A stretch of DNA of 64,000 nucleotides from an uncultured Aquimarina sp. (GCA_947501475.1 CANMWA010000009.1:76308-140307), one strand, 5' to 3'; positions 11,551 through 53,116 are shown, numbered from the stretch's first letter. The notes: generated by a model from the sequence alone, not told the origin. Numbers and translations are program-made.

Positions 11551-11609
11551 TAATAACCGAAAACTATTTCGTTATAATTTATTGATTTTCAGTTATTTAA
11601 AAAGTGTCA

Positions 11610-11625: not shown

Positions 11626-11704
11626 GGTGGTAGATTAATATTTCCGTTTTTTTATAGAATTATTCATAATTTCCGGTTTGAAAAAACGTAATTACTCAAA
11701 CTCA

Positions 11705-11902: not shown

Positions 11903-11992
11903 AATAGCTCTTTTGTGTATACATTTTATAATTTTTACAAAAAATGTATTACTAAAAACTCAATTTTTATTGTCAAATAATTACTCAAACTC

Positions 11993-12199
11993 ATGAAAAA
12001 AGCAAGAAACAAAAAATTAAGCCTAGACAAATTAAATATTACAAAATTAACTAAACTAAATTTTGTAGTAGGAGGATATGTTGAAAGTCAAGTAATAGGT
12101 GTAAATGGCTGTGAGCCAGATTTAACAGTAAGACCACGTAATACAGGTACGACTGCAGAATGCCCAACTAATGGACAATGTGAAAACGAATTTGCCTGA
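11993..12199 (+). CDS. Small double-glycine-leader peptide precursor 2
   Basis: MKKARNKKLSLDKLNITKLTKLNFVVGG, then core YVESQVIGVNGCEPDLTVRPRNTGTTAECPTNGQCENEFA. The 5' UTR (AATTACTCAAACTC) and leader DNA are duplicated from precursor 1. Confidence 0.75.
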   Translation: MKKARNKKLSLDKLNITKLTKLNFVVGGYVESQVIGVNGCEPDLTVRPRNTGTTAECPTNGQCENEFA

Positions 12200-12243
12200 T
12201 TTTTTTTGTAATCAGTAGATCCTAATACGTATAACGTTTAGAG

Positions 12244-12279
12244 AAAAAAATGTGCACTCAGTCAGGTGCACATTTTTTT
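12244..12279 (+). terminator. Intrinsic terminator after the peptide pair
   Basis: 14-bp inverted repeat AAAAAAATGTGCAC / GTGCACATTTTTTT with an 8-nt loop and a U tract. Confidence 0.8.
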
Positions 12280-12480
12280 ATAATGATAATGTGCTTTTTT
12301 AAGAAAGTATAGCTAGTAGTTAATAACAAATTTAACTAGGAAAAGTAAAATAAAATGATAAATCATAATTAAAACCTCTTATTTTTAAATAACTTTAACA
12401 AAAACTAAGTTTTAGCACTCTATTTTTAAGAATTTCATAATTAAGGGTTTTGTGCAAAACAATACATATTTAAGGGTTTC

Positions 12481-18500: not shown

Positions 18501-18622
18501 GATTGCGGTAAGCCGTCTTCTAATGTATATGCTCTTAATTGATTATTCTGAGCAGATAAAGAGCTTAAGGTACTTAATGCCACAAAAGAAAATAAATAAC
18601 ATAAAAATCTATACAGGTTCAT
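15569..18622 (-). CDS. LytS-type sensor histidine kinase with two-component regulator propeller and Y_Y_Y domains
   Basis: GLPQSQVYDIIQDEIGYLWLGTQGGGL repeats, Y_Y_Y region, TM helix, LRLQMNPHFIFNALN, IQPFVENAVRHG, DNGQG. Confidence 0.92.
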   Translation of the reverse strand: MNLYRFLCYLFSFVALSTLSSLSAQNNQLRAYTLEDGLPQSQVYDIIQDEIGYLWLGTQGGGLSRFNGEEFKTWNETDGLQSNYIHTLTFANDSLFIGTKGGLSIKTKDKFTNLEGPRINKICRIKNKTYLATNIGIYQYQKELGLKKIQLNTSINTSIISNIVFDGRLFWVATSKGLWKLNAIRNDASIIERHSAHNFTAAIYHKNKVFAAAFNQGVLVINTNAKSYGNRWIAKPLRVNNISAHNENELWFATDNEGITIIDAKKRKLKKKINRKNGLTVSHIRKSLLDQQSNIWIATSGGGFYKYFQNNFIHYDQNSGLKGNRVYAIHNTKKDIWASNSEAGLIKVDSIGKIHHIPQTDRLSEVKIKTITSDASGNIWAGTDGKGILFKEIKQIDSIVQTKEPKTDSIIKIDTITKTVFKNYIIDRDKGLPSDWIRTIHVNNNTIWAASYSTGIVRFKFDTEKNSITNVKKFERRNGIKDLQISYMKQDSLGKVWYATQNGHLGYIKNNKVTHFGNVLNQKTAIITLVFHKGKLYIGTAGRGIWWSELKGENIAVKKLKGRKKPYSDNIYQMIFDDQNNLWVGSERGVDKIELNQSNDIVDIFHFGRNDGFLGIETCQNSVAKDENGNLWFGAIYGLTKYEPSETTKTTIKPKLFFENIEVAYQTVDSINLNTWTNSNNVLKLKPTQTELSFSYKTIDLDHPNDIQYRIRLNNSEWSPWSSDNKQNLAGLAYGAHAFSAQSRNYRWEESDPITFQFFIDSPIYEKTWFQLAVLAAILLILGGYALSYIRKVKQKNKEERKRLEMQNHLLSLEQKALRLQMNPHFIFNALNGIKAMGTNNPQRMNTTINTFATLLRETLYNSRKDYITLDQEIQTLKHYVEIEQLMANKSFTYDIHIDSDFDPEEILIPPMLIQPFVENAVRHGILKGSRDGELKVRFHTTEEFLHCTVEDNGQGIFQSQKAKTNTDHQSMALTVTRERLESISGKNSLDIKEIITNGKTVAGTQIAFKIPLQTDY

Positions 18623-27839: not shown

Positions 27840-30800
27840 ATGTCAGAAAAATGTGAAAATATTGATAGTATCCTAAGAAGAAATGCTAGGGATCAAGAAC
27901 AACGATATAATAAAATACTCGACCCAGATAGTCTAAAACTACATGATTTAGAAATCGAGGATTGGATGTTATTTGCATATAACTTTGCAAAACACATCAA
28001 CTATTTCAAACCAGAAAATGATAGCGCTCCTTCAGGAGATTGGCAGGATTTATTTCGTTATTTTAGTTTTAATGGTGATACTATTCCCTTACGAGGTGAA
28101 TCAGCATATCAAAAACTAAAAGATGAGATTACGGCAACGCTTGCGGCGCAAGAAAAAGAAGGAGAAGTTACTCCTCACTTTACCTTGTTTATTTGTTTTC
28201 TTAAATTATTAAGTCTGTCGCAAGAAAGATTTAATGGACTCACCAAAAGACACCTCGATTTTTATTATAAAGAAATCCTGAAAGTTGAAAAACTCGCTCC
28301 AGAAGCAGATAAAGTACATGTTTTATTCGAAATTGCTAAAAAAAGTGTTAACGAACGAGTGGCAGAAGGAACAGAATTAGATAGCGGTAAAGATGCAGAC
28401 GGGAATAAACGTATTTATAAAACTTCAGAAGAATTAATAGCCAATAAGGCACAAGTAGCTGTACTCAAGAATATCCATAACGATTTTAATTCAAAAGATT
28501 TAAAAGTAAGTGAAATAGCAAATTCTTATGGTGGTAATGGAGATGATTTTCCGGATACCGAAACCAATTGGTGGCCTTTTGGATACCCTAGTACCGAAAC
28601 CAATTATCCAGAATTAGATACTGCTTCAATTGGTTTTTCTATCGCCTCGCCGTTATTATTACTTCAAGAAGGAAAACGTAAGGTAACAATTACTATTTCC
28701 TTTCAAGAAACATTAGAATCAATGGATCCTCAGGATTTGGCAGATGTTATAGAGTTTTATGGCACTGGTGAAGAAGATTGGGTAGGGCCATTTAAACTTG
28801 ATAGTAATGAAACAAAAATTCAAGATAAACAATTAATACTTGGTTTTACTTTAGAGAAAGATATACCAGGTATTGTTGGTTATAATCCAGAGATAATACC
28901 AGGGGCGTATGATACTGCGTTTCCGATATTTCGGTTTTTGATAGATCAAAACAAAGAAATAGATCAAGATGGGGAGGTTGTTTCATCAAAAGGATACTCA
29001 TTGTATACCAAGATTGCCACCAAAACTCTTGAATCCATAAAAATATTTGTAGATGTAGATGATGTGACATCACTAGCTTTAGAGAATGATACAGGGGTGC
29101 TTAATGCAAATAAACCTTTCTATCCTTTTACTACGCAACCAGTCATTAAATCAAATTTTTATATCGATTACCCAGAGTTGTTTTCTAAACAATGGAGAAA
29201 TATGAGAGTACAAGTCGAGTGGAAAAATACACCACCAAGCTTTAATACTTTGTATAAAGATTATGGGACTGCTTATCAAGATATACAGGATAGCTATTTT
29301 ACAGCAAAAACAGAGATCCTAAGAAAAGAAATATGGGAAAAAGAAGACCAGCTTAGGTTGTTTACTATCAATGAAGGAGTATATACTGCCGATCATATAA
29401 TAAATAATACAAATGACCATCTGGCGGGTTCTAGCGGTCCGTTACGATTTTCATTAAACAAATCATTTTTACATAGTATTTTTCCAAGAGTGTATGCAAT
29501 TGCTATTGCTCAGGCAATTAAAGATCCTAAGCTTCCAGTGCCAGGAGAACCGTATACCCCATTAATAGAAACCATATCATTAGACTATGAAGCGGAAGAG
29601 ATTACGTACTTTTCTAAATACAATAAAAGAAGAAAATATTATACGAATGTAATTGATGAAAAAGGGTATCGTCAAAACCGGATCAAATTATTTCATGAAA
29701 ATGCTTTTGGACAACATGAAGAGCATGGATACCTTAAGAAGGTAAAAAAAGATAATGATATCCTGGATCAGGATGATTTTAATACTACTATTGCTGCGCA
29801 AGAAAACTCCTTAAGCGAATTTGAAGTTCAAGATATACAGAACAACAGTACGCTTATTCCAACATATTGTAGAGGAGGTTCATTGCTTATTGGATTAGAA
29901 GAAGCACAGATAAATCAACAAATTTCATTACTAATACAAGTGCTCGAAGGAAGTGAAAACCCAAATGATGAAGGTTTTTTATCTAATCAACGAGTAGAAT
30001 GGTCAGTTTTGTGTAGCAATCACTGGAAAGATATTCAGGACGATATCATTATCAATAGTACAGATAATTTATTAAAATCTGGAATTATAAAATTCGGAAT
30101 TCCAAAACAAGCGACCTCTCAAAATACTCGATTACCAGATGGATACATCTGGATAAGAGCAAGAATTCATAAAAAATATAATGCCGTTAGTAAAGTAAAA
30201 GCAATTCATGCTCAAGCGGTAGTTGCAGTTTTTGATGATCGAAATAATGAATTATCTCATTTAGAGAATAGCCTACCTAATGGTAGTATAAGTAAGTTGA
30301 TCACTAGAGTACCACAGATCAAGTCCATTAGTCAACCGTATAATTCTTTTGATGGAAGCCCTCAAGAATCAGATGAAACGTATTATAGACGTATTAGTGA
30401 ACGACTACGTCATAAAAATAGAGCAATAACACTATGGGATTATGAAAACCTGGTATTACAAAAATTTCCAGAAATCTATCAGGTAAAATGCCTTAATCAT
30501 ACTAATATGTTGGTGTCACCACCATCATTTTTATCACCAGGACATGTAGCACTGGTAGTTATACCTGATACAATTAATAAAAATGTGTTTGATATTTTTC
30601 AACCTAGAGTTAGTAAAGCCACATTAAATAAAGTAAAGCGGTATATAAATAAATTAAACACGATGCATGTCACTACAGAGGTAGTTAACCCTACCTATGA
30701 AGAAGTAGAAATATCACTTTCAGTTAAGTTTTTTGATCAATATGACGAAAATTTTTATACCAAACAATTAAGCGAAGATATAACCAAGTTTTTATCGCCA

Positions 30801-39779: not shown

Positions 39780-42700
39780 ATGACAACGACATTAGAGGCA
39801 ATAACCACCAATTTTAGACGGTTTACTAAAAACCAGGTGCTTACCGAGGGGCACCTTAACCAAATCGTAGATTATTTTGATGATCAGATACGACTGTCCA
39901 GAACCTGCCTTAGTGGCGTGGGAATCGTGTGCGGTTTTGAGGTAAACTGTGATGATATTACCAAAGAAATTACCATCACGCAAGGAGTAGGGGTAACCAC
40001 CGATGGAGACCTGTTTAGCCTGTTTTTACCAGCAGATGATGGCGATTTTCGTATCGATTTCGAATCGTTAGCCTACAAAGGATACAAAACTTATGATAAT
40101 AGTAATGTACAGTATGAACCATTTTTCTATAAAAATAATAAACAGATTACCCTACGAGAGCTCACTCTTGAGGATAGTGGTAATGGGGTTAAACCTCTAA
40201 ATGGTCTAGCTACGCTTAAAGACATGGTTGTGTTATTATACCTCGAAACCTTTGTTGAAGACACAGATTTATGTACGACTCTGGGGTGTGATAATCAGGG
40301 TGAAAATAGAGTGGCAAATCATAAGGTGTTATTGGTAAATAAAACCGATGCGCAGCATATTATTGATCAAGATCCATCGATTCAAAAAACTAATTATAGT
40401 AAACTATATTATGATCTGCCCGAGGTGATCATGAATAAAGTGGTAGCTGTCCCAGATATTTTTGATTCATATACTGATCTAAAACGAAGTTTTGCCGATG
40501 CTATTTTAGATAAAGAAGTGATCAAAAATCTAGGTGACGGTTTTAAAATCATGTTAGGAATGGACTATATCGATGCTCCTGATCTCCTTTCAGAAATAGA
40601 AACAAAAATAGATCAGGTATTCGATTTTGAAGCACCTAATGCTCCTGCAGATGTACAATATCGTTATGATCTGCTTAAAGATCTGGTCGATACATATAAT
40701 GAAATCAAGCAAATACTATTACATATTGATGTATCTGATTGTTGTGCTGGATACCAGGATTTTCCTAAACATCTAATGATAGGTGAGGTTCAAAAAGAAG
40801 GTCAATGCTACGCATATAGACATGGGTTTTATAAATCTCCGATATTAGCAAATAATACATCTACTGGATGTGAAAGTTGCGATCCGGTAACACTAGATTA
40901 TGATTTTGAAGGCAGTACCGATGATGTACCTGCTTGCGAGGGTAGTATCGATCCCAATGGAGATCATGGCCACCATATCGTTTTTGTAATCGATGAGTCT
41001 GGTTCTTTTAGGCGACAAAAAGAATTTGTAACGCAAGCACTTAATGGATACTTGGATTCTGTTATGAATACGAATACCTATGTGTCTCTTATCGGGATGA
41101 CGTATAACGATAATACAGTAAGACAAGATCATTTGATTTATAGACCGGTAGCAGATCCAAGTTTACGAGATTGGATCTCTATGTTTGCCGATCCGTCGTC
41201 TCCAAGTTATCGTATTGGGGGTGATTTTTGGGGCACAGGCTATACTGTAGTAATAGATGCAATTCTCAATACCAGAGTTCCCGACCCGGCCATTGTGATC
41301 ACCTTGGCAGACGAATACCCCGGGGGGACTCATATAATTTCTGCAGAACGGGCAACCTATATTAAGAAGAGAACAAAACTTTTTAATTATATCGTGGATT
41401 ACGATAACAATAATATTCTTGCCCCTAATGCTGCTAATTCATTACCACCAGGCAACATTGCAAGTATCGATGGAGAGTCTGATCTAGACACTGCCGATTA
41501 CTTTTTTACAGCCAACTTTAATGATCTTGAAATTAAGATCAAAAACCTAAATGAATCACTAATCAATTCTAATATATTTTGCCAGGAAACAACAGCAGAT
41601 GAGGTAGATCCTTCAAAAGGAGAACTTACCATTTGTTATAGTGCTGATAAAAGTGAACAACGACTTTTTAGTTTAATTAAGAGAGTAGCATTACAGCTAA
41701 CCAATTATAATCCTGAGTATAGATTTGTCAAAATAACGCCATCACTAGAACTAGGAGTTTTAAGTAAAAAAGCAATTCCATTCTATTATAATGTAGGAGA
41801 AAAACTGATCGAATACTGGGATTTTGATAAGACCGTGATGGGTAGACATAAAACCAATCTTAGTTATCACGATAGTCTTTTGGCAATCAAAAAACCATTA
41901 CAGTTTTGTATAGATAATGATTTTTATCGCGTTGAAGGACATTTGGGGCGTAATTACCTCGAAGTAATTGATAGAATCAATACGGTAAAAAAATCTAATA
42001 GTTTAGGATTTAATGTGGTAGCATTACCACTTAATTCTCGTGATGTAGTGGGTATAGATTATAAGGAATATTATCTGAGTAAAAATTATGGTTTAGAACA
42101 TAAAGCAGGAGTGCCAGAGGGAGGAACATTAATATTATTTTATTTAGAGACTACCCAAATTGAAGAAGATAGAATTTCTGAAGATTTTATAGAGGAACAA
42201 ACTCGAAGATCTGATAAAGTTCGCCGCGTTAAAACAGTCGAAGAAGGACAGAAAAACGAAAAACGTTTGCCTGTAGCATCTCAATTTAATACTTTATTTG
42301 TAAATGAAACCAACCCGGTGGTAGCAGATTTCTGTTTACCATATCTATGTTGTGATGAAAACGAACCAGATGCCTGCTTACCAGATGAAATAGTATGCTT
42401 TGATGAGGAAACAGAACGCATTCCTTTTGAAGTTACTCCAAGAAACGCTGTAGTAACAGCAGATGTTGCATTAGGCCTTAATGGGGGAGTAGTAATTGAT
42501 AGAGCTGGTAATTATTTCTTTGATCCAAAAATTGTAAGTGAAATACTTCATGGTACTCAGATTCGATTTAAAGTAAATAATCAACGATCAAAATTTTCGG
42601 TTAAAATATTTAGAAAACCAGAACTAGAAATTACAAATACATTAACCTATGAAAGCAATAGGACTGTTGCTCGTGTAATCTTTACCATTACAGGAAGCGA

Positions 42701-42992
42701 GTTAAACCAAATTAGTTTATACCGATGGGATTTTGGAGATGGTTCTCCAATATCTGATCAACAACCAAATTCAACTGGACAAGTAGTGCATAGTTATCGT
42801 TTACCAGTGAATAGTGCCAATATTGTTAATCCAAAATTAACTGTGGTAAAAGGGCTATGTGAAACAGAAGTACCTATCGATGAAATTGATTTTGGAGAAG
42901 TACCTTATTACTATTACTATGGTTCTGATAATGTTAAAGGTTTTGATCTCGACTCAGACAGTATTTTATCTATATCTATAGGAGATTTATAA
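39780..42992 (+). CDS. eCIS fibre-like protein A (Afp13-like N-terminus) with inserted vWA domain and C-terminal PKD-like domain
   Basis: NQVLTEGHLN...RLSRTCLSGVGIVCG N-terminus; VFVIDESGS MIDAS; FYRVEGHLG, GLEHKAGV, VVADFCLPY; YRWDFGDGS. Confidence 0.72.
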   Translation: MTTTLEAITTNFRRFTKNQVLTEGHLNQIVDYFDDQIRLSRTCLSGVGIVCGFEVNCDDITKEITITQGVGVTTDGDLFSLFLPADDGDFRIDFESLAYKGYKTYDNSNVQYEPFFYKNNKQITLRELTLEDSGNGVKPLNGLATLKDMVVLLYLETFVEDTDLCTTLGCDNQGENRVANHKVLLVNKTDAQHIIDQDPSIQKTNYSKLYYDLPEVIMNKVVAVPDIFDSYTDLKRSFADAILDKEVIKNLGDGFKIMLGMDYIDAPDLLSEIETKIDQVFDFEAPNAPADVQYRYDLLKDLVDTYNEIKQILLHIDVSDCCAGYQDFPKHLMIGEVQKEGQCYAYRHGFYKSPILANNTSTGCESCDPVTLDYDFEGSTDDVPACEGSIDPNGDHGHHIVFVIDESGSFRRQKEFVTQALNGYLDSVMNTNTYVSLIGMTYNDNTVRQDHLIYRPVADPSLRDWISMFADPSSPSYRIGGDFWGTGYTVVIDAILNTRVPDPAIVITLADEYPGGTHIISAERATYIKKRTKLFNYIVDYDNNNILAPNAANSLPPGNIASIDGESDLDTADYFFTANFNDLEIKIKNLNESLINSNIFCQETTADEVDPSKGELTICYSADKSEQRLFSLIKRVALQLTNYNPEYRFVKITPSLELGVLSKKAIPFYYNVGEKLIEYWDFDKTVMGRHKTNLSYHDSLLAIKKPLQFCIDNDFYRVEGHLGRNYLEVIDRINTVKKSNSLGFNVVALPLNSRDVVGIDYKEYYLSKNYGLEHKAGVPEGGTLILFYLETTQIEEDRISEDFIEEQTRRSDKVRRVKTVEEGQKNEKRLPVASQFNTLFVNETNPVVADFCLPYLCCDENEPDACLPDEIVCFDEETERIPFEVTPRNAVVTADVALGLNGGVVIDRAGNYFFDPKIVSEILHGTQIRFKVNNQRSKFSVKIFRKPELEITNTLTYESNRTVARVIFTITGSELNQISLYRWDFGDGSPISDQQPNSTGQVVHSYRLPVNSANIVNPKLTVVKGLCETEVPIDEIDFGEVPYYYYYGSDNVKGFDLDSDSILSISIGDL

Positions 42993-42998
42993 TACATT

Positions 42999-43847
42999 TT
43001 GGAAAAGATAAATATAATATATAGCCTTAATACACATCCCATTATCCATAATCGATGGAACATGGGAAATAAATTTGAAGATACAATTTATATGACAGCT
43101 ACTAGTGTTTTGCATAGCTGTTTATGGTACGATACAATAAAACTATATGTAGACCCTATTGCGTATCAATATCTTTCGGGTTTGCCTTGTGAGGTTATTA
43201 AGGTTGATTTTGATATTGATCAGGAATTATGGATGGAGTCAAAATTATATGCTATAAAAAATGAACATGAGCCTTTTGTGCATATGGATACCGATGTGTT
43301 TATCAAAAAACCGATCGAGTTTATTTTTGATAAAGTCATAGTTGAGCGCAAAGATGCAGCATATTATTATTACAAGAATTTGATCACCTTTTTTGATCAA
43401 TATTGTAAAGATATATCATTCTGGAATCCAGAAATTCCATATGCATGGAGTTGTGGTATCATAGGGTTTAAAGATTTGAGATTAAAAAATGAATTCGTTC
43501 AATGTTATACTATACTTAAGAATGTTTTGCGAGAACATAGACAGGCCTATGAATCTTTTAAAAAAGGGGAACGAGGCTATTTAGAAGTTGCACTGTTATT
43601 AGAGCAATATAACTTAACAAGTTTATTGTCTTATTTAAGAGTACAACCAAATGTTTTGATACCCGGAGATAGTAAAAAAGAACAATCGGTATATGCAAAT
43701 CAAATAGGCTATACTCATTTATTGGGAGCATCAAAGTATCATCCCAAAAATGTAAATAAAATGAAAGAACTATTAAAGACTAAGTTTTTATCTCATTATA
43801 ACAAGATTAAAAACAAATTTGAAGAAAATAGCATCATAAATGCTTAA
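42999..43847 (+). CDS. DUF6734-like GT-A-fold (DxD) glycosyltransferase-like protein 1
   Basis: WMESKLYA, FVHMDTDVF, CGIIGF, LLEQY, IGYTHLLGASK. The TTG start is supported by N-terminal alignment with the next gene. Confidence 0.65.
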   Translation: MEKINIIYSLNTHPIIHNRWNMGNKFEDTIYMTATSVLHSCLWYDTIKLYVDPIAYQYLSGLPCEVIKVDFDIDQELWMESKLYAIKNEHEPFVHMDTDVFIKKPIEFIFDKVIVERKDAAYYYYKNLITFFDQYCKDISFWNPEIPYAWSCGIIGFKDLRLKNEFVQCYTILKNVLREHRQAYESFKKGERGYLEVALLLEQYNLTSLLSYLRVQPNVLIPGDSKKEQSVYANQIGYTHLLGASKYHPKNVNKMKELLKTKFLSHYNKIKNKFEENSIINA

Positions 43848-43909
43848 TGAAAATTAGCATTAAGAAGCAACAATAACGATGTGATTAATACAATAAAGTA
43901 CTAATATAA

Positions 43910-45562
43910 ATGAATAAAATTGTTTACAGTTTCTGGACAAAACCAATCCGCCATAGGTGGGCAAGATATAGTGAAGAGCATAATCTTGAAGATATGCTTC
44001 AATCTTCTATTAATTGTATGTGTTTGTCTGTATTGTATGCCAAAAAATGGGGTTTTGAGGTAGAGATTATTACCGATTTAGATAGCTTTCACCATTTTAA
44101 GGATCTACCTGTAGATCATATCTCTACAGATCTTTCTTTTTTGAGTTATGACAGGACATGGACAAAAGGGAAAATGCTTGCTATAGCAAAGCAAACCAGA
44201 CCGTTTGTACATATGGATTGGGATGTAATTCTTAGAAAGAAAGAGGTTGCAAATATGATCAGGCAATGTACTACAGGAGTATTGGTGCAAAGTGTAGATA
44301 AAGTAGGCTTTGATCGACAATCAAAAGGAGCCAGGGAGATTACTTTTGAAGAGCTAAAATACTTAAAGTGGATGATAGATTTTAAGCCAAATACCGCTGA
44401 AGAAATTATCAAGACATATGATGCTGTTTGTAACACAGCTATTGTTGGTTTTAATGATATGAAAGTAAAGGATGCCTATGTCTCAAATTATTTAAAATGC
44501 CTTGAAATTTCAGAAGAAACAGATTGGATGGATATCTCTAGAGTGATAGACCAATATTCATTGTATTGTTCTGTACAATCAAATAATACAACAATTACTG
44601 AAATATTACCAAGTACCAATAATATCCAGGAAACTGCTAATGATATAGGATACACCCATTTTTCATTTTTGAGTAAGTATACAAAAGTGATACAAAACAA
44701 AATTGTCGCTAGGATTAATGAAGAATTTCCTCAGTATAACCATTTGGTTTCTCCAAAACCTACAATAAATAACCCAATAAAGTTAAGCCTTTGTACAGTG
44801 GTGATGAATCGTTTTGATCATATGGTAACCACATTAGAGCATAATGTAAAGGTTGCAAGGCAATTTAAAGGAGAAGTAGACATTAACATTCTTGATTATA
44901 ATTCTACTGATGGACTTGAAGAACATTTGTTTTTGCAAGATTGGTTTGTAGAGGGTATTGCAGATGGCTTGATCAACTATTATAAAAATTATAAGGCTAA
45001 GTATTTTCATAGAACGCTGCCAAAAAATACCATCCATAATATGGCATTAGGTGAGTATTTGATCAATGTTGATGCAGATAATTATATAAGCCCTAGTTAT
45101 CTAATGTATTGCAAAACAATTGCAGAGCATGAGAAAAACTTCTTTTTACGACCATCAATGCATAGTGCCAAAGGAAGTCTAGGACGTATTGTTGTGCACC
45201 GCGATGATTTTAAAAAATTAGGAGGGTACAACCTTAAAATATCTAATTACGGATATGAGGATGCAGAATTCACATTGAGATTACGAAAACTCGGTATTAA
45301 ACAAATCAATGTACCCTCACACATATGTCTTGATGCTATTGATCATGGAGATCATGATCGAATGGCTAATGAGAAACCAAGAGAAAAAGTTCGATTTGAT
45401 AATGCATTAGAAGATTCTGATTATGAAAATAAGATGATCGACTTTGAATTGTATCCAAACCTCAATGAGATAGTGGATATTGAGTTATTTAAGATTAATC
45501 ATAAAAAACAAAGAATTAAAATATATGACACCCGTACATATACTCTGGACAGAGCCATTTAA
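43910..45562 (+). CDS. DUF6734-like GT domain fused to a GT2/GT7C-like glycosyltransferase
   Basis: N-terminal domain: IVYSFWTKP, FVHMDWDVI, NTAIVGF, IDQY, GYTHF. C-terminal domain: LSLCTVVMNR, ILDYNSTDG, NVDADNY, DFKKLGGYN...YGYEDAEFTLRL. Confidence 0.72.
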   Translation: MNKIVYSFWTKPIRHRWARYSEEHNLEDMLQSSINCMCLSVLYAKKWGFEVEIITDLDSFHHFKDLPVDHISTDLSFLSYDRTWTKGKMLAIAKQTRPFVHMDWDVILRKKEVANMIRQCTTGVLVQSVDKVGFDRQSKGAREITFEELKYLKWMIDFKPNTAEEIIKTYDAVCNTAIVGFNDMKVKDAYVSNYLKCLEISEETDWMDISRVIDQYSLYCSVQSNNTTITEILPSTNNIQETANDIGYTHFSFLSKYTKVIQNKIVARINEEFPQYNHLVSPKPTINNPIKLSLCTVVMNRFDHMVTTLEHNVKVARQFKGEVDINILDYNSTDGLEEHLFLQDWFVEGIADGLINYYKNYKAKYFHRTLPKNTIHNMALGEYLINVDADNYISPSYLMYCKTIAEHEKNFFLRPSMHSAKGSLGRIVVHRDDFKKLGGYNLKISNYGYEDAEFTLRLRKLGIKQINVPSHICLDAIDHGDHDRMANEKPREKVRFDNALEDSDYENKMIDFELYPNLNEIVDIELFKINHKKQRIKIYDTRTYTLDRAI

Positions 45563-46439
45563 GAAGAATAATAAGAAAATAGAATCGTGTACTCATATGT
45601 TCTTAAGCGCTACCATGATCAAACAGGTTTATGGCGAGATTCATGTGATTACTGATAGATACGGTGAGTATTTAATCAATCAATTAGGATTGCCTTATGA
45701 CAAAGTGCATTTGGGATTAGATCAAGCTACAAGTGATTTTACATTTCCTGATGCCAAAGTTCTTGCTTACAAAATGCTCTCTGATATTATTCCGGGATAC
45801 TTGTACTTTGATTTTGATATTTTTATTACTAGACCGGTTCTTAAAAAAGATTTTATTGTGCAATGTGACGAAGGAGCATCGCCTTATCCATATCGTATAT
45901 ATCAATATTTGATTGACAAAGGAATCGAATTTTGTTATGATTACGAACTTTCGGATTTAAGGTTCTTCAATATGGGATTATTTCGTTGTGCTGATAAAAG
46001 AATTGTATACGAGTATTATGAATCCTATTTCACTACAAAATATCAAAATCAATATATAAAAATAGATGATGTACTGACTCCTCAATATGTGATGTTTTTA
46101 GAACAAAATTATATCTATAAAGTGTTACAAAAGAATAATTTACTCGACCAGGTACATGAGCATTTTCCTGCTCGGCAGAATCAATATAATAATTTTGGTT
46201 TTGATGTTTTTATAGATAAAGCAAATGCAATAATGAATGAATATGATAATGATGATTTAGAATTTGACCCAAATTATCACGCACCATCCGATATTAAAAA
46301 TATTGATATAACAGGATATACGCATTTGATGTATTTTAAAGAAAATGAAGAAGTGTTGACAGATGTAGTAGAATATGCATTTACGAACTATCCTAAAGAG
46401 TTTTCAAAATTAATGGTAAAAATGAAACATATTTGTTAA
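45525..46439 (+). CDS. DUF6734-like DxD glycosyltransferase-like protein 3
   Basis: VHILWTEP, LSATMIKQVYGEIHVITD, KVLAY, YFDFDIF, FNMGL, FLEQN, GYTHL. ATG at 45525 is preferred. Confidence 0.62.
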   Translation: MTPVHILWTEPFKKNNKKIESCTHMFLSATMIKQVYGEIHVITDRYGEYLINQLGLPYDKVHLGLDQATSDFTFPDAKVLAYKMLSDIIPGYLYFDFDIFITRPVLKKDFIVQCDEGASPYPYRIYQYLIDKGIEFCYDYELSDLRFFNMGLFRCADKRIVYEYYESYFTTKYQNQYIKIDDVLTPQYVMFLEQNYIYKVLQKNNLLDQVHEHFPARQNQYNNFGFDVFIDKANAIMNEYDNDDLEFDPNYHAPSDIKNIDITGYTHLMYFKENEEVLTDVVEYAFTNYPKEFSKLMVKMKHIC

Positions 46440-47990
46440 ATGACCAACGCAGGAAAACATATCATTAATAAAGTCTATGTAGAGGTAAATACTGCTTCCA
46501 AAGAACAGGCCTACCATATCAAAGATAATCTCGATGTGTTTTTAAAAGAGCATGTTTTTCAGCAAATAGAAAATCATTTTGACACCATTGAAAAAGACAT
46601 TAAAAATAATATTGTAAGAATAGAAAAGCTAGATTTGGATCTAACGGTAAACAGTGATTTTAAATATGATGATTTAAAACAAAAAATTACTGTAGGATTA
46701 GAGAAAGTGATTCGCGAAAAAATAGAAGATAGTATTGTTAGCAAAGATCATGAGGATATATTTCTAACGAGTGATGATAATATCCTTACATCCTTTTTTT
46801 ATTTCCTCGAGAGAGGCACTATGCCCTGGTGGAAAGGAATAGAAACTTCAAGTTTTTTGCTGGATGATGAGGTGTTATATGGCGTCTTAGAAAAAAATGA
46901 ATTTGAGCGCTTGTTTCAAGAAAAAATAAAACAATCTTATGTCAGAAAACGATTTATAAAACAGTTTTCTGATCAAGCTATTATCACAATATTGATACAC
47001 TCGTATAAGAATAGTAGCGCCAATAATCATATAGATATCACAAGACTCTTAAACGATGAATTGATTTTGTTGTTAGAAGCTGTACAACCCGAATTTAGAA
47101 CAGAAATCTGGAATCAAATCATCATCTTTTACACCACAGTTAATCCAGCATCATTATATCAGACGATTTATAAGCTAAAGGATACTTTGTATATAGAAAA
47201 CGAGAAATCTATAAAATCAATTCAGATTAACAGTTCAGAAATCTTTAAAAATTTTCAAAAGAAGATTGTATGGTTCGATATGTTGATCGAAACACGACAA
47301 TCTAATAATGATACAATTAAGAGTGATGATCCAAAACCAATACACTTAGCGAAAAAGGATACAGATAAAAATATTGAAGATCAAATAAAAACTGACGATA
47401 AAAACCGTCAGGGTATTAAAGATGATATAGGAGAACCCAAGGTAGAACCAATAGATGAAAATACTGATCAAATAGATCAAGATAATGTTCTTGAACAAGA
47501 AGGATACTATCTAGAAAATGCAGGATTAATACTAATACATCCGTTCCTGAAACATTTTTTTGAACATTGCGAATTACTCAATGAAGATGGCACCATTAAT
47601 GATCCCGAATTGGCAGTGCATGTCTTACATTATCTAACGACAAAAAATGAAAATCAGCCAGAATATCTTATGATACTCGAAAAATTTTTATGTAATGTCC
47701 CAATTCATAAATCAATTCATAGAAATATTACAATACCTCAAAAAATCAAGGAACAATCAGAGGAGTTATTACAAGCAGTAATTCAAAACTGGGGAGCACT
47801 CAAAAATGCCTCTTCAGATTTATTACGCAATGAATTTTTGCAACGATCTGGTAAACTTGTGCTCACTGATAAGAGCCCCAAAATTATTGTAGAAAGAAAA
47901 ACACAAGATATTCTTTTGGATAGATTGCCGTGGAATATAAGTATCGTAAAACTACCATGGAAAGACAAGCTAATCTTTGTAGACTGGTAG
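46440..47990 (+). CDS. Contractile injection system tape-measure protein (Afp14-like)
   Basis: KHIINKVYVEV N-terminus, YFLERGTMPWW, LENAGLILIHPFL, LRNEFLQRSGKL, DILLDRLPWNISIVKLPW. Confidence 0.88.
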   Translation: MTNAGKHIINKVYVEVNTASKEQAYHIKDNLDVFLKEHVFQQIENHFDTIEKDIKNNIVRIEKLDLDLTVNSDFKYDDLKQKITVGLEKVIREKIEDSIVSKDHEDIFLTSDDNILTSFFYFLERGTMPWWKGIETSSFLLDDEVLYGVLEKNEFERLFQEKIKQSYVRKRFIKQFSDQAIITILIHSYKNSSANNHIDITRLLNDELILLLEAVQPEFRTEIWNQIIIFYTTVNPASLYQTIYKLKDTLYIENEKSIKSIQINSSEIFKNFQKKIVWFDMLIETRQSNNDTIKSDDPKPIHLAKKDTDKNIEDQIKTDDKNRQGIKDDIGEPKVEPIDENTDQIDQDNVLEQEGYYLENAGLILIHPFLKHFFEHCELLNEDGTINDPELAVHVLHYLTTKNENQPEYLMILEKFLCNVPIHKSIHRNITIPQKIKEQSEELLQAVIQNWGALKNASSDLLRNEFLQRSGKLVLTDKSPKIIVERKTQDILLDRLPWNISIVKLPWKDKLIFVDW

Positions 47991-48041
47991 CGATACATAG
48001 ATAATAAAATAGTGAAATAACTAATAAAATACACACAAATC

Positions 48042-51000
48042 ATGATCACCAAATTAGCCAAAATAACACCTGGTTTTAGAAGGTTTTCCAGAAGTCAATT
48101 TCTGACAGAAAACCTGTTAAACCAACTATTTGATCATTTTGATGACCAGATTCGTTTATCTAGAGTGAATCTAAGTGGTGTTGGGATTGTCTGTGGTTTT
48201 GAGGTAAGCAAAACTGCTGATGTAATTACTATACAACAAGGACTTGGGGTTACTACAGATGGGGATTTGTTACACCTGTATGTTGATCTAGACGAAGGCG
48301 GTAAGAGTATTAAATTTCCTAGCATAGCGTATACACATTTTCGAGTGTATGACAATAGTAAATCAGAGTATAGCCCGTTTTTTTATCAAGACAATAATCA
48401 AATAGAGTTATTTGAATTACTGCCCGGATACGAAAACTCAGAAACACTAAGTTTAAGTAATTTTCCGAGAGAAGATAGACCAGATCTAGAAGATATGGTA
48501 GTGCTTATTTACCTAGAAAACTATGAGCGAAATATTAATAAATGTAGTAGTTTAAACTGTGATGGTGAAGGGACAGATATTGTAGCAAATTATAGAATTT
48601 TAATTACTTCTAAAGCCGATGCAGCATATATTAATAGCTATGATAATACAATAAGCAAACCTAATTATGGTAAGTTATATTATAAGATTCCAGAGATATT
48701 ACTTCCAAAAGTAATTGTAACCGCCGAGGATTTTGAAAGCTCAATAAAATTAGGCAAACGTTTATCATTGCCTTTCGAAAACCTAAAATTATTAAATAAT
48801 CTTGTCGAAGGTTTCTCAGCCATATTCGATGTTTTGCAATTACCAGATCTCAAACAAAGACTACTAACAAAGTTCAATGATTTATTTATATCAACAACGG
48901 GTTCTGATCTTATACTAGATGATTTACAATATCGATATGATATATTAAAAGATGTAGTAGATACTTATAATGAGATAAAAAGACTTTTGCTAGAATTGTC
49001 CTCTAGAGCATGCAACGCAAATCAAGGAGATTTTCCTAAGCATTTAATGTTGGGCGAAGTATCAAAAGAGGGGGTTTGTTATAGCTGTAGGCATAGTTTT
49101 TATAAATCGATATTACATACTTCTAAAAGCGGGGATCCTTGTTTTGATTGTAATGCAATAGCAAATGATCAAAACGATACTATTTGTTTTGATATTCATG
49201 AGCCAGAACAACTACTTTACAGTCTTTTGATACGAGTAGTTAAACAACTCGAAAATTATAACTCAAAACATACTGAAATTAAAATAACACCTTCATTCTT
49301 ACAAGGTAGTTTAGGAAGAAAAGCGATTCCGTTTTATAATGATGTAGACAACACATTACTAAAACTTTGGGATTTTGAGAAATCTGCAAAAGGAATAGAA
49401 ACCTCTAATAGAAGTTATCATAGAGATTTATTAAATACTGATGATCCATTTGCAATATGTATCGATAAAGATTTTTATAGAATCGAAGGACATCGAGGTC
49501 AAGATTATAAAGCTGTACTTAATCGATTAAAAGAACTAAAACGAGAACATGCGATAAGTTTTAATGTTGTCGCACTAGGGATTTCTAGTAATTTCTTTAC
49601 GCAAGAAGGCAATAGCGAAGAAATTAGTATCCCTATGAGAGGGGGCGAAGAAAACTATACGTCATATTATGTAAATAATAGGCCAGGACTAGAGCATAAA
49701 GCAGGAGTAACCCCAAAAGGAACTTTTGTGATTGTATTTTTAGAGGATTTCCTTATACAGGAAGGTAGAAGTTTAAAAAATAGAGTAGCAAAAATAGAAG
49801 CCGCTGAGGGATTTGAAGGATCATTTAATCCTGTAATAGCAGATTTTATGGTTCCTTACTTATACTGTGATGAAAGTCTGCCAACGTTAAAACTCCCAGA
49901 AGAATCTATATGTTTTGATAGCGATACCAAGCCAATACCATTCGAAACCACTCCCAAAGATGGTTTTGTAGTCGCTTTGGTACCTAGAGGTCTAAACGGA
50001 GGAGTTACACGAAACGCAAATGGGAGATCATTTTTTAACCCTAAACTAGTGAGCCCGCAGCTTATTAACACCCCAATAAGATTTGAAATAAATAATCAGG
50101 ATACAGATGCGGTAATCACAATTCATCGCAGACCAGAACCAATAATTACAACTACGGTTACTTATGATAATCCGTTCAAAACAGAAGTTACAGTAACATA
50201 TACGGTATCTGGTCCATATAGTAGCGAAATTACCGAATACAAATGGGACTTTTTAGGAGACGGTAATACAGTTATTATCGAACCAGATGCTTCTGGAAAT
50301 GTGGTAAGAAACTACCAAAACCCAGTAGCACCAAACCCTACTGTAATCAGTTCAAAACTCGATGTAAAAACTGATTTTTGTAGCAATACGATACTTATTG
50401 ATCCTATTATTTTTGATGACCCAATAGTAATAGAACTCGATTTTGATAGAAACGAAATTTGCGTGAATCCTGCAGCATGTGATGTTCCTACACACATTGC
50501 TTTGATAGTAGATGAATCTGGATCTATAAGCGGAAATGAAATTACCGAAATAAAAGATGGATTAAGAGCTTTTATTGACGGTCAAGAAGGTACAAATAAT
50601 GTGATCACATTATTAAATATGCATGACTCAGATAACGGAAGACCTCTTAATATTATAGATGAATTACCAATAATTGCCAGCACAAAAGGTCGGTTTACAC
50701 AATGGATAGATAATTATCGTACATCTGCATCTGGAGCAGCAGGCAATTCGCATTTTTGGACCAGCGGAATAGGGTATTTAATTAATGATTTACCTAATGT
50801 TCTCAATAGCCTTAAAACAAATCCAGACATTGTAATTTTAATAGCCGATGGTGTTGCTGCTACTGATTCTTTGCGATTTAAGCAAAGAGTGGCTGCGCTA
50901 AATTCGAGATCACATTTGTTCTTTTATGCATTAAGTAGCCCAACTGAAACTGCAGTAGGATATGGTAATGACTTACCAGGGTACCTTAGAAATCAAGTGC

Positions 51001-52199
51001 TCGACAGATCACCTATTAGAATCAATGCTGATTTCTCAAATATAGAAACAGCAGATTATGGCACATTTGCTAGTTTTAACCAATTAGCAAGATTTTTAAC
51101 GAATCTAAAACAGATTTTAGATAATGCAATTGGTTGTATCGAAAAAATTAACATAACGGCATTGCAACCTATACAAGGATCTGTACAGACAGCAGGAAGT
51201 ACGGTGTATAATGGTATAGACATACAAGGGCGTACGATCTCAATTAATCCAAAAGAGTTTGATGCCTATGGTGAAGAGATCGCATTTACAGTAGATGGAT
51301 TTGAAACAAATGAAACACTACTCGTAGAAAGAGCTCCAGAAGAAGTTAGGGTTGCAGTAAATGAGATTGTATATAACGAGGATAGAACAAAAGCTACAGT
51401 AACATTTGGTGTTAGTGGTAACTTCTTACCAGTATTTCCTTCTTTATTATGGAACTTTGGTGATGGAACTGAAGAACAACAAGGGTCAGAATTAGCTCAA
51501 AAGCATGAGTATACAGATATTGCAAATTTACCCAATAGAACTGCTAGTGTAAGTGTAGAAATTGCAAACCCTATATGTGGCCCAGTTACACAAGGAGTAA
51601 GAGTAGTATTCGAAGATGTCGAAGAAAAAGTATCACTAAGAATTAATCCTAGAATGTGTTTGGATTCGGCTACCGAAATGGATAGCGCTCTTACGGTACC
51701 ATTTGTAGTCACTCCCGAAGGAGGAAAATTAAAGGTTGTACGACGAACCAACGGAATGCGTATAGGAACAAATCAGATTGTATTTACCCCTTCAACCTTT
51801 AGGAGGTATGATACGCCTATAGCGTTTACAGTAAATGACCAACCAGTACCAGATACTTTAACGGTAACGAAGAAACCTAATGTTGATTTCAGTATGCAAA
51901 TTGGACCTCTCGAGATTGGAGAAATAATAGAAGATTCAGAAGGAGATATTATCGGAGGAGGAGAAGGAAGAATATTTGCAAGTAGTGTTAAGTTTAGTAT
52001 TGTGAATCTAAATGAGTTTGATGAAACACAATATAAATTTTCTTGGATTTTTGGAGATAATAGCACTTCTGAAGAGAAGAACCCTACACATCGCTATAGA
52101 TATAGAGGTGATGTTGCTGTGCCAGTAGAATTAACAGTTTCTGATGGGTTTTGTGAAACCGCAGTCGCGCAAGTATTAAGAATAAGAGTTGCTACTTGA
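48042..52199 (+). CDS. eCIS fibre-like protein B (paralogue of A) with vWA domain and three PKD-like domains
   Basis: Same N-terminal core (QFLTENLLNQ...RLSRVNLSGVGIVCG; FYRIEGHRG; GLEHKAGV); ALIVDESGS; YKWDFLGDG, LWNFGDG and SWIFGD...NPTHRY. Confidence 0.72.
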   Translation: MITKLAKITPGFRRFSRSQFLTENLLNQLFDHFDDQIRLSRVNLSGVGIVCGFEVSKTADVITIQQGLGVTTDGDLLHLYVDLDEGGKSIKFPSIAYTHFRVYDNSKSEYSPFFYQDNNQIELFELLPGYENSETLSLSNFPREDRPDLEDMVVLIYLENYERNINKCSSLNCDGEGTDIVANYRILITSKADAAYINSYDNTISKPNYGKLYYKIPEILLPKVIVTAEDFESSIKLGKRLSLPFENLKLLNNLVEGFSAIFDVLQLPDLKQRLLTKFNDLFISTTGSDLILDDLQYRYDILKDVVDTYNEIKRLLLELSSRACNANQGDFPKHLMLGEVSKEGVCYSCRHSFYKSILHTSKSGDPCFDCNAIANDQNDTICFDIHEPEQLLYSLLIRVVKQLENYNSKHTEIKITPSFLQGSLGRKAIPFYNDVDNTLLKLWDFEKSAKGIETSNRSYHRDLLNTDDPFAICIDKDFYRIEGHRGQDYKAVLNRLKELKREHAISFNVVALGISSNFFTQEGNSEEISIPMRGGEENYTSYYVNNRPGLEHKAGVTPKGTFVIVFLEDFLIQEGRSLKNRVAKIEAAEGFEGSFNPVIADFMVPYLYCDESLPTLKLPEESICFDSDTKPIPFETTPKDGFVVALVPRGLNGGVTRNANGRSFFNPKLVSPQLINTPIRFEINNQDTDAVITIHRRPEPIITTTVTYDNPFKTEVTVTYTVSGPYSSEITEYKWDFLGDGNTVIIEPDASGNVVRNYQNPVAPNPTVISSKLDVKTDFCSNTILIDPIIFDDPIVIELDFDRNEICVNPAACDVPTHIALIVDESGSISGNEITEIKDGLRAFIDGQEGTNNVITLLNMHDSDNGRPLNIIDELPIIASTKGRFTQWIDNYRTSASGAAGNSHFWTSGIGYLINDLPNVLNSLKTNPDIVILIADGVAATDSLRFKQRVAALNSRSHLFFYALSSPTETAVGYGNDLPGYLRNQVLDRSPIRINADFSNIETADYGTFASFNQLARFLTNLKQILDNAIGCIEKINITALQPIQGSVQTAGSTVYNGIDIQGRTISINPKEFDAYGEEIAFTVDGFETNETLLVERAPEEVRVAVNEIVYNEDRTKATVTFGVSGNFLPVFPSLLWNFGDGTEEQQGSELAQKHEYTDIANLPNRTASVSVEIANPICGPVTQGVRVVFEDVEEKVSLRINPRMCLDSATEMDSALTVPFVVTPEGGKLKVVRRTNGMRIGTNQIVFTPSTFRRYDTPIAFTVNDQPVPDTLTVTKKPNVDFSMQIGPLEIGEIIEDSEGDIIGGGEGRIFASSVKFSIVNLNEFDETQYKFSWIFGDNSTSEEKNPTHRYRYRGDVAVPVELTVSDGFCETAVAQVLRIRVAT

Positions 52200-52273
52200 T
52201 TATAGCAGTATAAAAGATCACGAAATCCTGATCTTTTATGTTTAAATTTATATACTATATTAAAAGAGAAATT

Positions 52274-53116
52274 ATGAAAACAATACGATACCGTTCTCGA
52301 GGAGAAGATGTTCATTACTTAGAAGAGATACTAACAAAATTAGGATATACGGTTTATGTTTCTAATTTTTTTGGAAAAGATACCCATGAAGCTGTAAAGG
52401 ATTTTCAGGCTAAAAATGGATTGGTGGTTGATGGTATAGTTGGTCTTAAATCCTGGTCAAAACTTATTGAAGCCGAAAGAAACCTGATAGCATTTAATGA
52501 TAAATTTTTATCAGAGCAGGATGCCAAAGAGTTTGCAACTCAGTTTGGTCTTGAATTAGCAATGGTAAAAGCAGTTAATGAAGTAGAAAGCAGAGGTAAA
52601 GGGTTTTTGGTGTATGGAAGACCTGTAATTTTATTTGAAGGACATATATTTTGGAGAGAATTAGAAAAACGAGGAGTGAATCCTTCTCAATACGTGTCTG
52701 AGCATACCAAAAATGTATTATATAAAAAATGGACTAGAACTCATTATAAAGGTGGGGCTGGTGAATATGATCGATTAGAAAAAGCTGCAGGGATTTCAGA
52801 TATACCTGCATTTCATGATGCTGCATATAGTGCTGCTTCATGGGGGGCTTTTCAGATCATGGGGTTTCATTATGACCATTTGGGATATGCATCTATAGAT
52901 CATTTTGTTTCAGAAATGTATGAGCACGAAAGAGAACACCTTAAAGCTTTTGGCAAATTTATCGAGAAGACTTCTTTTAAAGGAAAAAAACTAATCGATT
53001 GGATAAAAGAGAAAAATTGGGCCAAATTTGCAGAAGGATATAATGGACCAGGATATAAAAAGAATAAATACGATATCAAATTGAAGAACGCCTATGTCAA
53101 GTACAGTAACAACTAA
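52274..53116 (+). CDS. Endolysin: peptidoglycan-binding domain plus DUF3380 N-acetylmuramidase
   Basis: RGEDV..LEEIL..LGY...FQAKNGLVVDGIVG; AVNEVESRG, ILFEGHIF, SWGAFQIMGFHY. ATG at 52274 is preferred. Confidence 0.9.
   Translation: MKTIRYRSRGEDVHYLEEILTKLGYTVYVSNFFGKDTHEAVKDFQAKNGLVVDGIVGLKSWSKLIEAERNLIAFNDKFLSEQDAKEFATQFGLELAMVKAVNEVESRGKGFLVYGRPVILFEGHIFWRELEKRGVNPSQYVSEHTKNVLYKKWTRTHYKGGAGEYDRLEKAAGISDIPAFHDAAYSAASWGAFQIMGFHYDHLGYASIDHFVSEMYEHEREHLKAFGKFIEKTSFKGKKLIDWIKEKNWAKFAEGYNGPGYKKNKYDIKLKNAYVKYSNN

Follow-up and report, generated by a model that had tools for sequence, protein, structure and literature searches.

Homologous vWA cassettes at two different positions in sister tail fibre proteins of an Aquimarina contractile injection system

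Two fibre genes in a contractile injection operon

The sequence analyzed here (the window) is a 64,000-nucleotide (nt) stretch from an uncultured Aquimarina sp. (GCA_947501475.1, CANMWA010000009.1:76308-140307), and it contains a complete chromosomal operon for an extracellular contractile injection system (eCIS) of this member of the Flavobacteriaceae, on the + strand. A full set of eCIS genes was recognized by Pfam at positions 19984-54449 (Pvc16_N, sheath, tube, CIS_tube, VgrG, PAAR, gp25, Baseplate_J, eCIS_core, CIS_TMP and AAA ATPase); the best homologues and related loci were found in Aquimarina (Flavobacteriaceae), the G+C content of the window was ~33%, and the flanking genes were ordinary chromosomal ones (TonB receptor, histidine kinases, Na/Ala symporter, Era). 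Within this operon, two genes located 5 kb apart encode paralogous tail fibre proteins, hereafter A and B, and each protein carries a von Willebrand factor A-type (vWA) domain bracketed by cysteines (hereafter cassette), inserted at a different position of the fibre. The features of both genes are listed below, numbered from the first letter of the window.

39780..42992, + strand: fibre paralogue A, 1070 amino acids (aa) (PDB sequence search, AF2 model)
39780..40898, + strand: A residues 1-373, shoulder and neck core, ending just past CESC; aligns with B1-376 and Alg19 2-355
40869-40880, + strand: CESC (CxxC motif) of A, residues 364-367
40935..41582, + strand: cassette A, Cys-to-Cys vWA, C386-C601, 216 aa
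40992-41006, + strand: DESGS of cassette A, residues A405-409
41298-41315, + strand: beta4 motif ITLADE of cassette A
41490-41501, + strand: TADY of cassette A
41628..42893, + strand: A residues 617-1038, core resumed (TICY..EQRLFSL); aligns with B380-791 and with Alg19 358-494 plus 884-1068
48042..52199, + strand: fibre paralogue B, 1385 aa (residues 1-790 searched against PDB; C-terminal PKD_4)
48042..50414, + strand: B residues 1-791, core uninterrupted (shoulder, neck, middle, first Ig and PKD)
49140-49151, + strand: CFDC of B, residues 367-370
49179-49190, + strand: TICF of B, residues 380-383
50478..51137, + strand: cassette B, Cys-to-Cys vWA, C813-C1032, 220 aa
50511-50525, + strand: DESGS of cassette B, residues B824-828
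50835-50852, + strand: beta4 motif ILIADG of cassette B
51048-51059, + strand: TADY of cassette B
51138..52196, + strand: B residues 1033-1385, two more Ig-like and PKD repeats, without helical tip

The first-pass annotation of this DNA, made from the sequence alone, had drawn the limits of the two cassettes exactly at these positions (A C386..C601 and B C813..C1032), and the motifs that it quoted were all in place (CESC and TICY in A, CFDC and TICF in B, DESGS and TADY in both).

Shared core and family assignment

Pairwise comparison by BLASTP recovered the collinear core that had been described for both proteins, split in A by a segment of ~216 aa: A1-373 aligned with B1-376 (45% identity, E=3e-94) and A617-1038 with B380-791 (39% identity, E=1e-89), while the segment interposed in A (A368-622) aligned with B793-1054 (24% identity, E=6e-12). 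The core of A resumes at TICY (residues 617-620) and continues with the middle domain, one Ig-like and one PKD domain, without a helical tip (residues 617-1038); in B, only 9 residues separate CFDC from TICF. The internal repeats of the B C-terminus matched A924-1015 and related segments, and PKD_4 was detected there with E=4e-14.

Scans of whole A and B against Pfam, NCBIfam and PHROGs returned PKD only, and no fibre family. In searches of the Protein Data Bank (PDB) with phmmer, B residues 1-790 matched 9wt0_a (Alg19, E=6e-91) and 7b5h_AA (Cis19, All3314; E=1.6e-21), and A matched the same two chains (E=7e-87 and E=3e-34, respectively). In addition, an AlphaFold2 (AF2) model of full-length A, with a predicted local distance difference test score (pLDDT) of 74, matched three Cis19 chains of 7B5H in Foldseek (E=1e-23 to 4e-20). 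The entry 9WT0 corresponds to Alg19, which serves as tail fibre in the eCIS of Algoriphagus machipongonensis (AlgoCIS) (bioRxiv 10.1101/2025.10.08.681156; 10.64898/2026.05.27.728243), and All3314 corresponds to Cis19, which forms the crown trimer in the thylakoid-anchored contractile injection system (tCIS) of Anabaena (PDB 7B5H; PMC8894136). Based on the sequence matches and on the fold of the A model, A and B are paralogous eCIS tail fibres of the Cis19/Alg19 (eBAP4) family, so that the fibre-like nature attributed to them from the sequence found strong support. Given this strong homology to Alg19 and Cis19, whose positions in the baseplate have been solved, both proteins are almost certainly associated with the particle. 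A role of A or B as cargo or effector was also considered and rejected, since the homology of the N-terminal shoulder and the fibre-type architecture speak against it.

The cassettes as vWA domains

A hidden Markov model (HMM) of the two window cassettes detected the segment, again at the two positions described, in eight A-type and five B-type orthologues (E 1e-45 to 1e-98), and had no match in the remainder of the 120 listed homologues which, together with B itself, constituted the family sample (121 members). The fibre cassettes amounted to 15 in total (9 A-type, 6 B-type), and a profile was built from 14 of them, taken Cys to Cys. Against PDB, this profile matched vWA domains, including the I domains of integrins alphaM and alphaX (best E=2.7e-5), with DxSxS and the Asp after strand beta4 aligned; the sequence of cassette B, searched alone against PDB, had no meaningful match. 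All 14 cassettes matched PF00092 at E<=1 (best E=5.6e-7). The AF2 model of cassette B (pLDDT 77, predicted TM-score 0.81) showed the alternating beta-alpha pattern of vWA domains, and its top 50 Foldseek matches were all vWA/I domains over ~220 columns (best E=5.8e-8, TMq 0.49-0.63); the full A model also matched vWA domains, ranked below Cis19.

Cassettes A and B shared 24-27% pairwise identity, and 24 columns were invariant in the 14 cassettes of the profile, including C1, D12, S14, S16, W76, W94, D124, D193, Y194 and C220. DxSxS and the beta4 Asp were invariant in 15/15 fibre cassettes, and were kept in 37-38 of the 38 full-length cassettes found in other proteins (see below). At the putative middle position of the metal ion-dependent adhesion site (MIDAS), the family motif was [SA]-D-[YF]-W, distant members having T at position -2 from W. 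The pairwise, profile and fold matches thus support the proposal that both cassettes are homologous vWA domains. The G+C content of the cassettes was 0.39 (A) and 0.35 (B) vs. 0.33-0.37 in their flanks, and base composition gave no clear sign of recent transfer of either one.

Insertion sites

The first insertion site corresponds to a variable loop after the CxxC motif, whose residues are kept on both sides of cassette A and mostly deleted in B. The gap between the two core halves was 1-46 aa in 112 non-A homologues, vs. 240-256 aa in the nine A-types. Since A360 and A627 align to Alg19 residues 355 and 358, cassette A forms a loop-out from the structured body of shoulder, neck and middle regions, in an arrangement similar to that of integrin I domains; the linkers around it showed low pLDDT. 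In AlgoCIS, the shoulder-neck-middle body of Alg19 wraps the baseplate cage (bioRxiv 10.1101/2025.10.08.681156 / 10.64898/2026.05.27.728243).

At the second site, cassette B was found directly after a conserved 'IC' with which the second Ig-like repeat begins, and the remainder of this repeat comes after the cassette. Given that the site falls inside this repeat, cassette B lies within the flexible distal arm, between Ig-like repeats; BLASTP and site mapping agreed with the earlier placement of this ~220-aa segment after the first PKD domain. The N-terminus of any vWA fold is next to its C-terminus, both being located on the opposite pole from the MIDAS site, and a domain of this kind can therefore be inserted into a loop.

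A conserved cluster of cysteines (CC...C...CxxC...C) surrounds the first site in most family members. It spans A residues 321-367 and 619 (~40740-40880 and 41634) and B residues 324-382, with C321 invariant. In a table of the catalogue of eCIS receptor-binding domains, a weak Ephrin_rec_like match is reported at the position of the cluster in an orthologue (PMC12923769). This neck cluster might represent a metal or disulfide knot.

Distribution, paralogy and loss of the helical tip

In the survey of homologues with and without the cassette, 15 of the 121 members carried it, and these were exclusively the nine A-types (at ~residues 385-600) and the six B-types (at ~residues 780-1030). A neighbour-joining tree of the core (Poisson distances, 748 core columns) recovered A-types and B-types as sister clades in 190/200 bootstraps, and in 98/100 and 87/100 when the two core halves were analyzed separately; the A+B clade was nested among cassette-less fibres of Flavobacteriaceae. 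Both cassette types were present in at least seven Aquimarina species representatives, and the gene order around A and B, including the genes between them, was the same in the Aquimarina genome L001. In Aquimarina sp. AD1, a single fibre gene, tip-bearing and 1155 aa long, was located directly after the Cis12-like gene.

A typical member of the family has ~1150 aa and ends in Ig/PKD domains followed by a helical tip. This tip was detected in 101/121 members, but in none of the A-types and none of the B-types; that of homologue P0019 matched Alg19 residues 1318-1439 (E=6e-4). Both paralogue clades have therefore lost the ancestral helical tip, and the vWA module was apparently gained in exchange for it. 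AlgoCIS particles can be re-targeted by swapping their tip (bioRxiv 10.1101/2025.10.08.681156 / 10.64898/2026.05.27.728243).

The module family outside the fibres

In order to delimit the family to which the cassettes belong, the cassette profile was searched exhaustively against 1.84 billion representative proteins, yielding 337 matches at E<=1e-3, 122 of them at E<=1e-10. Among the 150 listed of the 337 matches, the only Cis19-type proteins were P0050 (A-type) and P0121 (the B-type representative). A word-index search with the cassette alignment gave a single protein, which is attributed to a limit of the index and not to rarity of the module. Among the matches listed, the full-length module, including the C-terminal extension 'TADY...NL...GC', was present in 38 other, unrelated multidomain proteins, 330-2900 aa long, with Invasin_D3, PKD, fn3, GBD_T9SS_assoc, Ig_7, LRR and Big domains; genomes encoding such proteins included Kordia, Flavobacterium and Bizionia, based on a scan of genome contigs. 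The portability claimed for the module in the first-pass annotation is borne out by these matches: it constitutes a family of portable, Cys-bracketed vWA domains, common in large adhesin-like proteins of Flavobacteriaceae. Its hallmarks are DxSxS, [SA]-D-[YF]-W, the Asp after beta4 and the 'TADY' C-terminal extension, together with a Cys shortly before beta1 and another after the last helix.

Outside eCIS loci, each of the large module proteins was followed by a gene of ~226-246 aa next downstream (L011 11913-12593, L012 7249-7962, L015 7301-8041 and L030 7271-7990), which in Kordia contains a phage tail Collar domain; in L030, a giant RHS/DUF6443 protein (8022-13269) comes next. This neighbourhood may represent a conserved arrangement of an adhesin with toxin delivery.

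The Cys bracket was evaluated across the same set. As originally noted, both window cassettes begin and end with Cys and have none inside; the lack of internal Cys constitutes weak evidence, as ~3-4 would be expected from composition and four B-type orthologues have one. The terminal pair was present in 15/15 fibre cassettes. Among the cassettes of other proteins, the N-terminal Cys, placed 3-5 residues before beta1, was found in 33/38, the C-terminal Cys in 26/38, and both in 25/38; because it is shared with these proteins, the bracket is an ancestral trait of the module family and is not specific to the insertions in fibres. In the model of cassette B, C1 precedes beta1 by 5 residues and C220 follows the last helix by 3, and the adjacency of both ends in the vWA topology suggests that a disulfide may join them.

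Origin of the two cassettes

The relationships among 53 cassettes were analyzed by neighbour-joining with Poisson distances (~205 columns). The A-type and the B-type cassettes each formed a clade in 200/200 bootstraps, and monophyly of A and B was recovered in 0/200. In 191/200 bootstraps, A-type cassettes instead grouped with P0159 and P0182, both of them secreted vWA proteins of 422 aa, while B-type cassettes joined outside cassettes to the exclusion of A-types in 200/200, cassette B being placed with those of Invasin/Ig adhesins. The same pattern was observed in identity values, cassette B sharing 34-43% with outside cassettes vs. 26% with cassette A, and in profile scores: an HMM of B-types scored outside cassettes up to 163 bits and A-types 47-72 bits, and an HMM of A-types showed no preference for B-types (55-86 bits vs. 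up to 93 for outside cassettes). Lineage-specific motifs and indels followed the same division, since cassette A has 'HIVFxxDxSxSF', 'GDExPGPY' and a short loop in common with P0159 and P0182, and cassette B has 'xTDG', 'SH[LI][FY]xY' and a longer loop in common with P0122-P0132.

Non-monophyly, HMM scores and the motifs with their indels favour two separate acquisitions, from different branches of one module family. The earlier proposal of an independent double insertion is in this respect favoured as to the separate origins; it does not hold for the context, given that the hosts are sister paralogues of one Aquimarina lineage and the two events were not independent in that sense.

Comparison with known systems

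Among the closest known systems is Alg19, which is held at the baseplate vertices by contact of its shoulder with the Alg12 C-terminal loop, and without which cells are no longer bound (bioRxiv 10.1101/2025.10.08.681156 / 10.64898/2026.05.27.728243). A and B share with it homologous shoulder, neck, middle and Ig/PKD regions, a setting in a Bacteroidota eCIS operon and, by homology, docking as a trimer on the Cis12/Alg12 C-terminal loop and a role in cell binding; in contrast, Alg19 is encoded by a single gene and has 1444 aa, four Ig-like folds, a helical tip (1251-1444) and no vWA domain. Cis19 (7B5H) has the same N-terminal fold and belongs to the same family, but comes from a cyanobacterial system that is membrane-anchored; the distal parts of the protein are missing from its model, and it is not reported to carry a vWA cassette.

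With regard to the cassettes, the alpha I domains of integrins (CD11b/alphaM, 1JLM/1IDO) were the best profile and fold matches, share DxSxS and the beta4 Asp and, as in cassette A, are looped out of a host domain with adjacent termini; they differ in being eukaryotic, in having the canonical MIDAS Thr and in lacking a terminal Cys pair, and allosteric coupling through helix alpha7 has been shown for integrins only. The A1 and A3 domains of von Willebrand factor (vWF), a vertebrate plasma protein, are vWA domains closed by a single disulfide between N- and C-flanking Cys, and offer a possible analogy for the terminal pair of the cassettes; vWF A3 was among the Foldseek matches (1atz, 1ao3, 1fe8). 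SpaC (6M3Y), the tip adhesin of a Gram-positive pilus, was the 5th-ranked fold match of the full A model and, like A, combines an Ig-like fibre with an adhesive vWA/MIDAS domain, although it belongs to sortase-assembled pili, unrelated to contractile injection systems.

The presence of VWA domains in fibres of this family has been catalogued. In a 2026 catalogue of eCIS receptor-binding domains, the initial 200 aa of the tCIS crown protein define eBAP4, and fibres with eBAP4 are associated with PKD, Big11, VWA, Invasin_D3 and Cadherin (PMC12923769). Its supplement lists, for IMG genome 2606217188, gene 2606547948 with VWA at 393-582 and PKD at 935-998, and gene 2606547953 with PKD at 680-741, VWA at 799-966 and two more PKD; the two are five gene numbers apart, downstream of a DUF4157 gene (PMC12923769). 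On account of the same architecture and synteny, as given in that supplement, this appears to be an orthologous pair of A and B. The catalogue gives weak domain matches only, and the passages of its main text and supplements found by term searches contain no discussion of insertion positions, origin of the module, Cys bracket or tip loss (PMC12923769). The novelty of a vWA domain in an eBAP4 fibre is consequently modest, and A and B do not represent a new kind of system; the new elements are the insertion sites relative to the Alg19 structure, the setting in sister paralogues, the two source lineages, the ancestry of the Cys bracket and the correlated loss of the tip.

These elements are relevant because eCIS tail fibres decide which cells get injected, and are the part exchanged when particles are re-targeted. 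The Cis19/Alg19 scaffold tolerates a folded domain of ~215 aa at two places, a loop of the rigid neck/middle region and the flexible arm; a Cys-bracketed vWA module circulates between large adhesin-like proteins of Flavobacteriaceae and injection-system fibres; and its recruitment accompanies the loss of the ancestral helical tip. The locus thus provides a concrete case in which exchange of receptor-binding domains can be tested, within a class of fibres that has received little study, and for which A. pacifica SW150, A. celericrescens KCTC 52897, A. spongiae DSM 22623 and Aquimarina sp. AU474 would be suitable cultured strains.

Proposed function and alternative explanations

Overall, the results are best explained by duplicated Cis19/Alg19 fibres that lost their tip and received, each one, a vWA module from a different branch of the family, an explanation that we hold with moderate confidence. 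By analogy with the systems described above, A and B would each form trimers, with the N-terminal shoulder docked on the C-terminal loop of Cis12 at a baseplate vertex, and each trimer would display three vWA domains instead of the helical tip, that is, up to three sites per fibre. After release into Mg2+/Ca2+-rich seawater, the MIDAS-type site formed by DxSxS and Asp would bind Mg2+ or Ca2+, and an acidic group on the surface of the target cell would complete the coordination of the cation; the terminal Cys pair would oxidize once outside the cytoplasm, and the resulting disulfide would close the inserted domain. A, being short, would hold its vWA domain near the baseplate, and B, being long, would hold it on an arm, thus differing in reach. 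Two vWA lineages in two geometries could in this way provide the particle population with two reaches or two specificities of binding, and the ligands of A and B probably differ, in view of their different module lineages. Trimer docking, binding of metal and ligand, and any functional consequence are proposed here by analogy.

Several observations weigh against this explanation. It would be an odd coincidence for both insertions to have occurred in the two daughters of one duplication and in none of ~100 other homologues. The cassette-to-core distance ratio between A and B was 1.72, inside the range found within clades (1.39-1.87), and by divergence a cassette that split at the duplication is therefore also compatible; moreover, the distance trees were built at 25-45% identity, where long-branch artefacts are possible. 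The Pfam VWA scores of the window cassettes (18.2 bits for B, 13 bits for A) fell below the gathering threshold of 23.8, so that the assignment required profile and fold evidence, both of which were supportive. At the position -2 from W, as read from the alignment only, A has Asp (DFW) and the B of the window has His (SHFW), so that metal binding by B may be weak or absent. Finally, eCIS particles are assembled in the reducing cytoplasm, hence a disulfide in the cassettes would only be possible after release.

The distance ratio is also compatible with a single acquisition followed by a copy within the locus to a new position in the other paralogue, with fast divergence of the A copy. The restriction of the module to two sister clades among the 121 members, the distance of 5 kb between the genes in one operon, and a somewhat faster evolution of A-type than of B-type cassettes (ratio 1.87 vs. 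1.39) are in agreement with such a course. The cassette tree is not, as monophyly of A and B was absent from all 200 replicates and cassette A grouped with P0159 and P0182 in 191/200, with motifs and a shorter loop in common, while cassette B had its own motifs in common with P0122-P0132; nor did the HMM of A-types score B-types any higher than outside cassettes. On balance, a copy within the locus seems unlikely. A further alternative concerns function rather than origin: the modules, especially that of A, could be structural or serve in assembly, binding the cage, a neighbouring fibre, cargo or the envelope of the producer. vWA domains also mediate the assembly of protein complexes elsewhere, residue ~356 of Alg19, equivalent to the insertion site of A, belongs to the part that wraps the baseplate cage, and the middle MIDAS position is non-canonical. 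Against this, the module family occurs mostly in large Invasin_D3/PKD/fn3/LRR/Big proteins with an architecture typical of adhesins, the receptor-binding tip is lost where the module was gained, none of the 15 fibre cassettes deviates in DxSxS or in the beta4 Asp, and the B module sits in the flexible distal arm, the part that contacts the target in AlgoCIS (bioRxiv 10.1101/2025.10.08.681156 / 10.64898/2026.05.27.728243). A structural role is accordingly judged rather improbable.

The possibility that the segments are unrelated fillers with chance similarity, or are not vWA domains, could only draw on the pairwise identity of 24-27% and on the sub-threshold Pfam scores. It was refuted by the pairwise E value (6e-12), the 24 invariant columns in 14 cassettes, the profile and fold matches to I/vWA domains and the 122 representatives with E<1e-10, and its probability is negligible. 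Within the preferred explanation of two modules from different branches, a more elaborate division of labour may be envisaged, in which B would make the first loose attachment and cassette A, located beside the baseplate cage, would act as a built-in, integrin alpha I-like sensor of a 'secondary receptor'. Ligand binding at its MIDAS would displace the C-terminal helix, this movement would pass into the fibre body via the short and possibly disulfide-closed connection, and it would contribute to the outward tilt of the fibres that precedes firing; we regard this scenario as very doubtful.

Other genes and features of the operon

The remaining genes of the operon were assigned as follows.

19984, + strand: Pvc16_N cap
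21591, + strand: sheath
23534 and 23977, + strand: gp19-type tube (two genes)
24603, + strand: CIS_tube
25335, + strand: VgrG-like spike
27121, + strand: PAAR
27413, + strand: gp25
27840..33817, + strand: baseplate wedge genes, Cis11-like and Cis12-like (Pfam; gene order)
27840, + strand: Baseplate_J protein, 1074 aa, Cis11-like (Pfam)
31052, + strand: 921-aa protein, Cis12-like by position (identity inferred from gene order)
33856, + strand: eCIS_core/DUF4157 protein, 1598 aa
38642, + strand: 219-aa protein
42999-46439, + strand: three DUF6734 genes
46440-47990, + strand: CIS tape-measure gene
52238, + strand: PG_binding and muramidase
53094, + strand: AAA ATPase

No Rfam families were found in the window, and no public sequencing runs holding this region were found. 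The 1598-aa eCIS_core (DUF4157) protein (33856-38652 region) has an acidic N-terminal repeat (MEDEEVQTMSSEEDVQ... repeated), the G+C content rises to 45% at 34001-36000 within this region, and the next gene is the unannotated one of 219 aa; the products of both genes are presumably a cargo or effector and its partner.

The intergenic stretch of 478 nt between the 219-aa gene and fibre A (39302-39779) has a G+C content of 43% vs. ~33% nearby, and contains degenerate repeats with a period of 42 nt in both orientations (about 39428-39690), among them perfect inverted arms of 13 nt (39431-39443 and 39548-39560); no match to this stretch was found in Rfam. Around 440 nt of this stretch were kept (73%) in one other Aquimarina locus only (L027), while in the other A/B-type loci examined only its last ~35-50 nt aligned, the corresponding gap in L001 being 36 nt. 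An antisense open reading frame of 149 aa at 39324-39773 is probably spurious.

Three consecutive DUF6734 genes (42999-46439) are located between fibre A and the tape measure, the middle one fused to a GT2-like/galactosyltransferase-like C-terminal part. The same arrangement was observed in L001 (4994-8390), and the single-fibre locus of Aquimarina AD1 has one DUF6734 gene (L002 15655-16521). DUF6734 looks like an accessory family linked to eCIS, possibly glycosylating the fibres. The gene with PG_binding_1 and N-acetylmuramidase (52238-53116), between fibre B and the AAA ATPase, is also kept in L001, and its product might have a role in particle release or in cell-wall penetration.

Two proteins with Reg_prop (two-component regulator propeller) flank the eCIS cluster, at 15569-18622 (- strand) and 54566-57475 (+ strand), one of them with His_kinase/HATPase and the other with a GAF_2 match below threshold (20.9 vs. 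28.6 bits). Together with an AraC-type TPR/HTH_18 protein at 9889-11550, both are candidate regulators.

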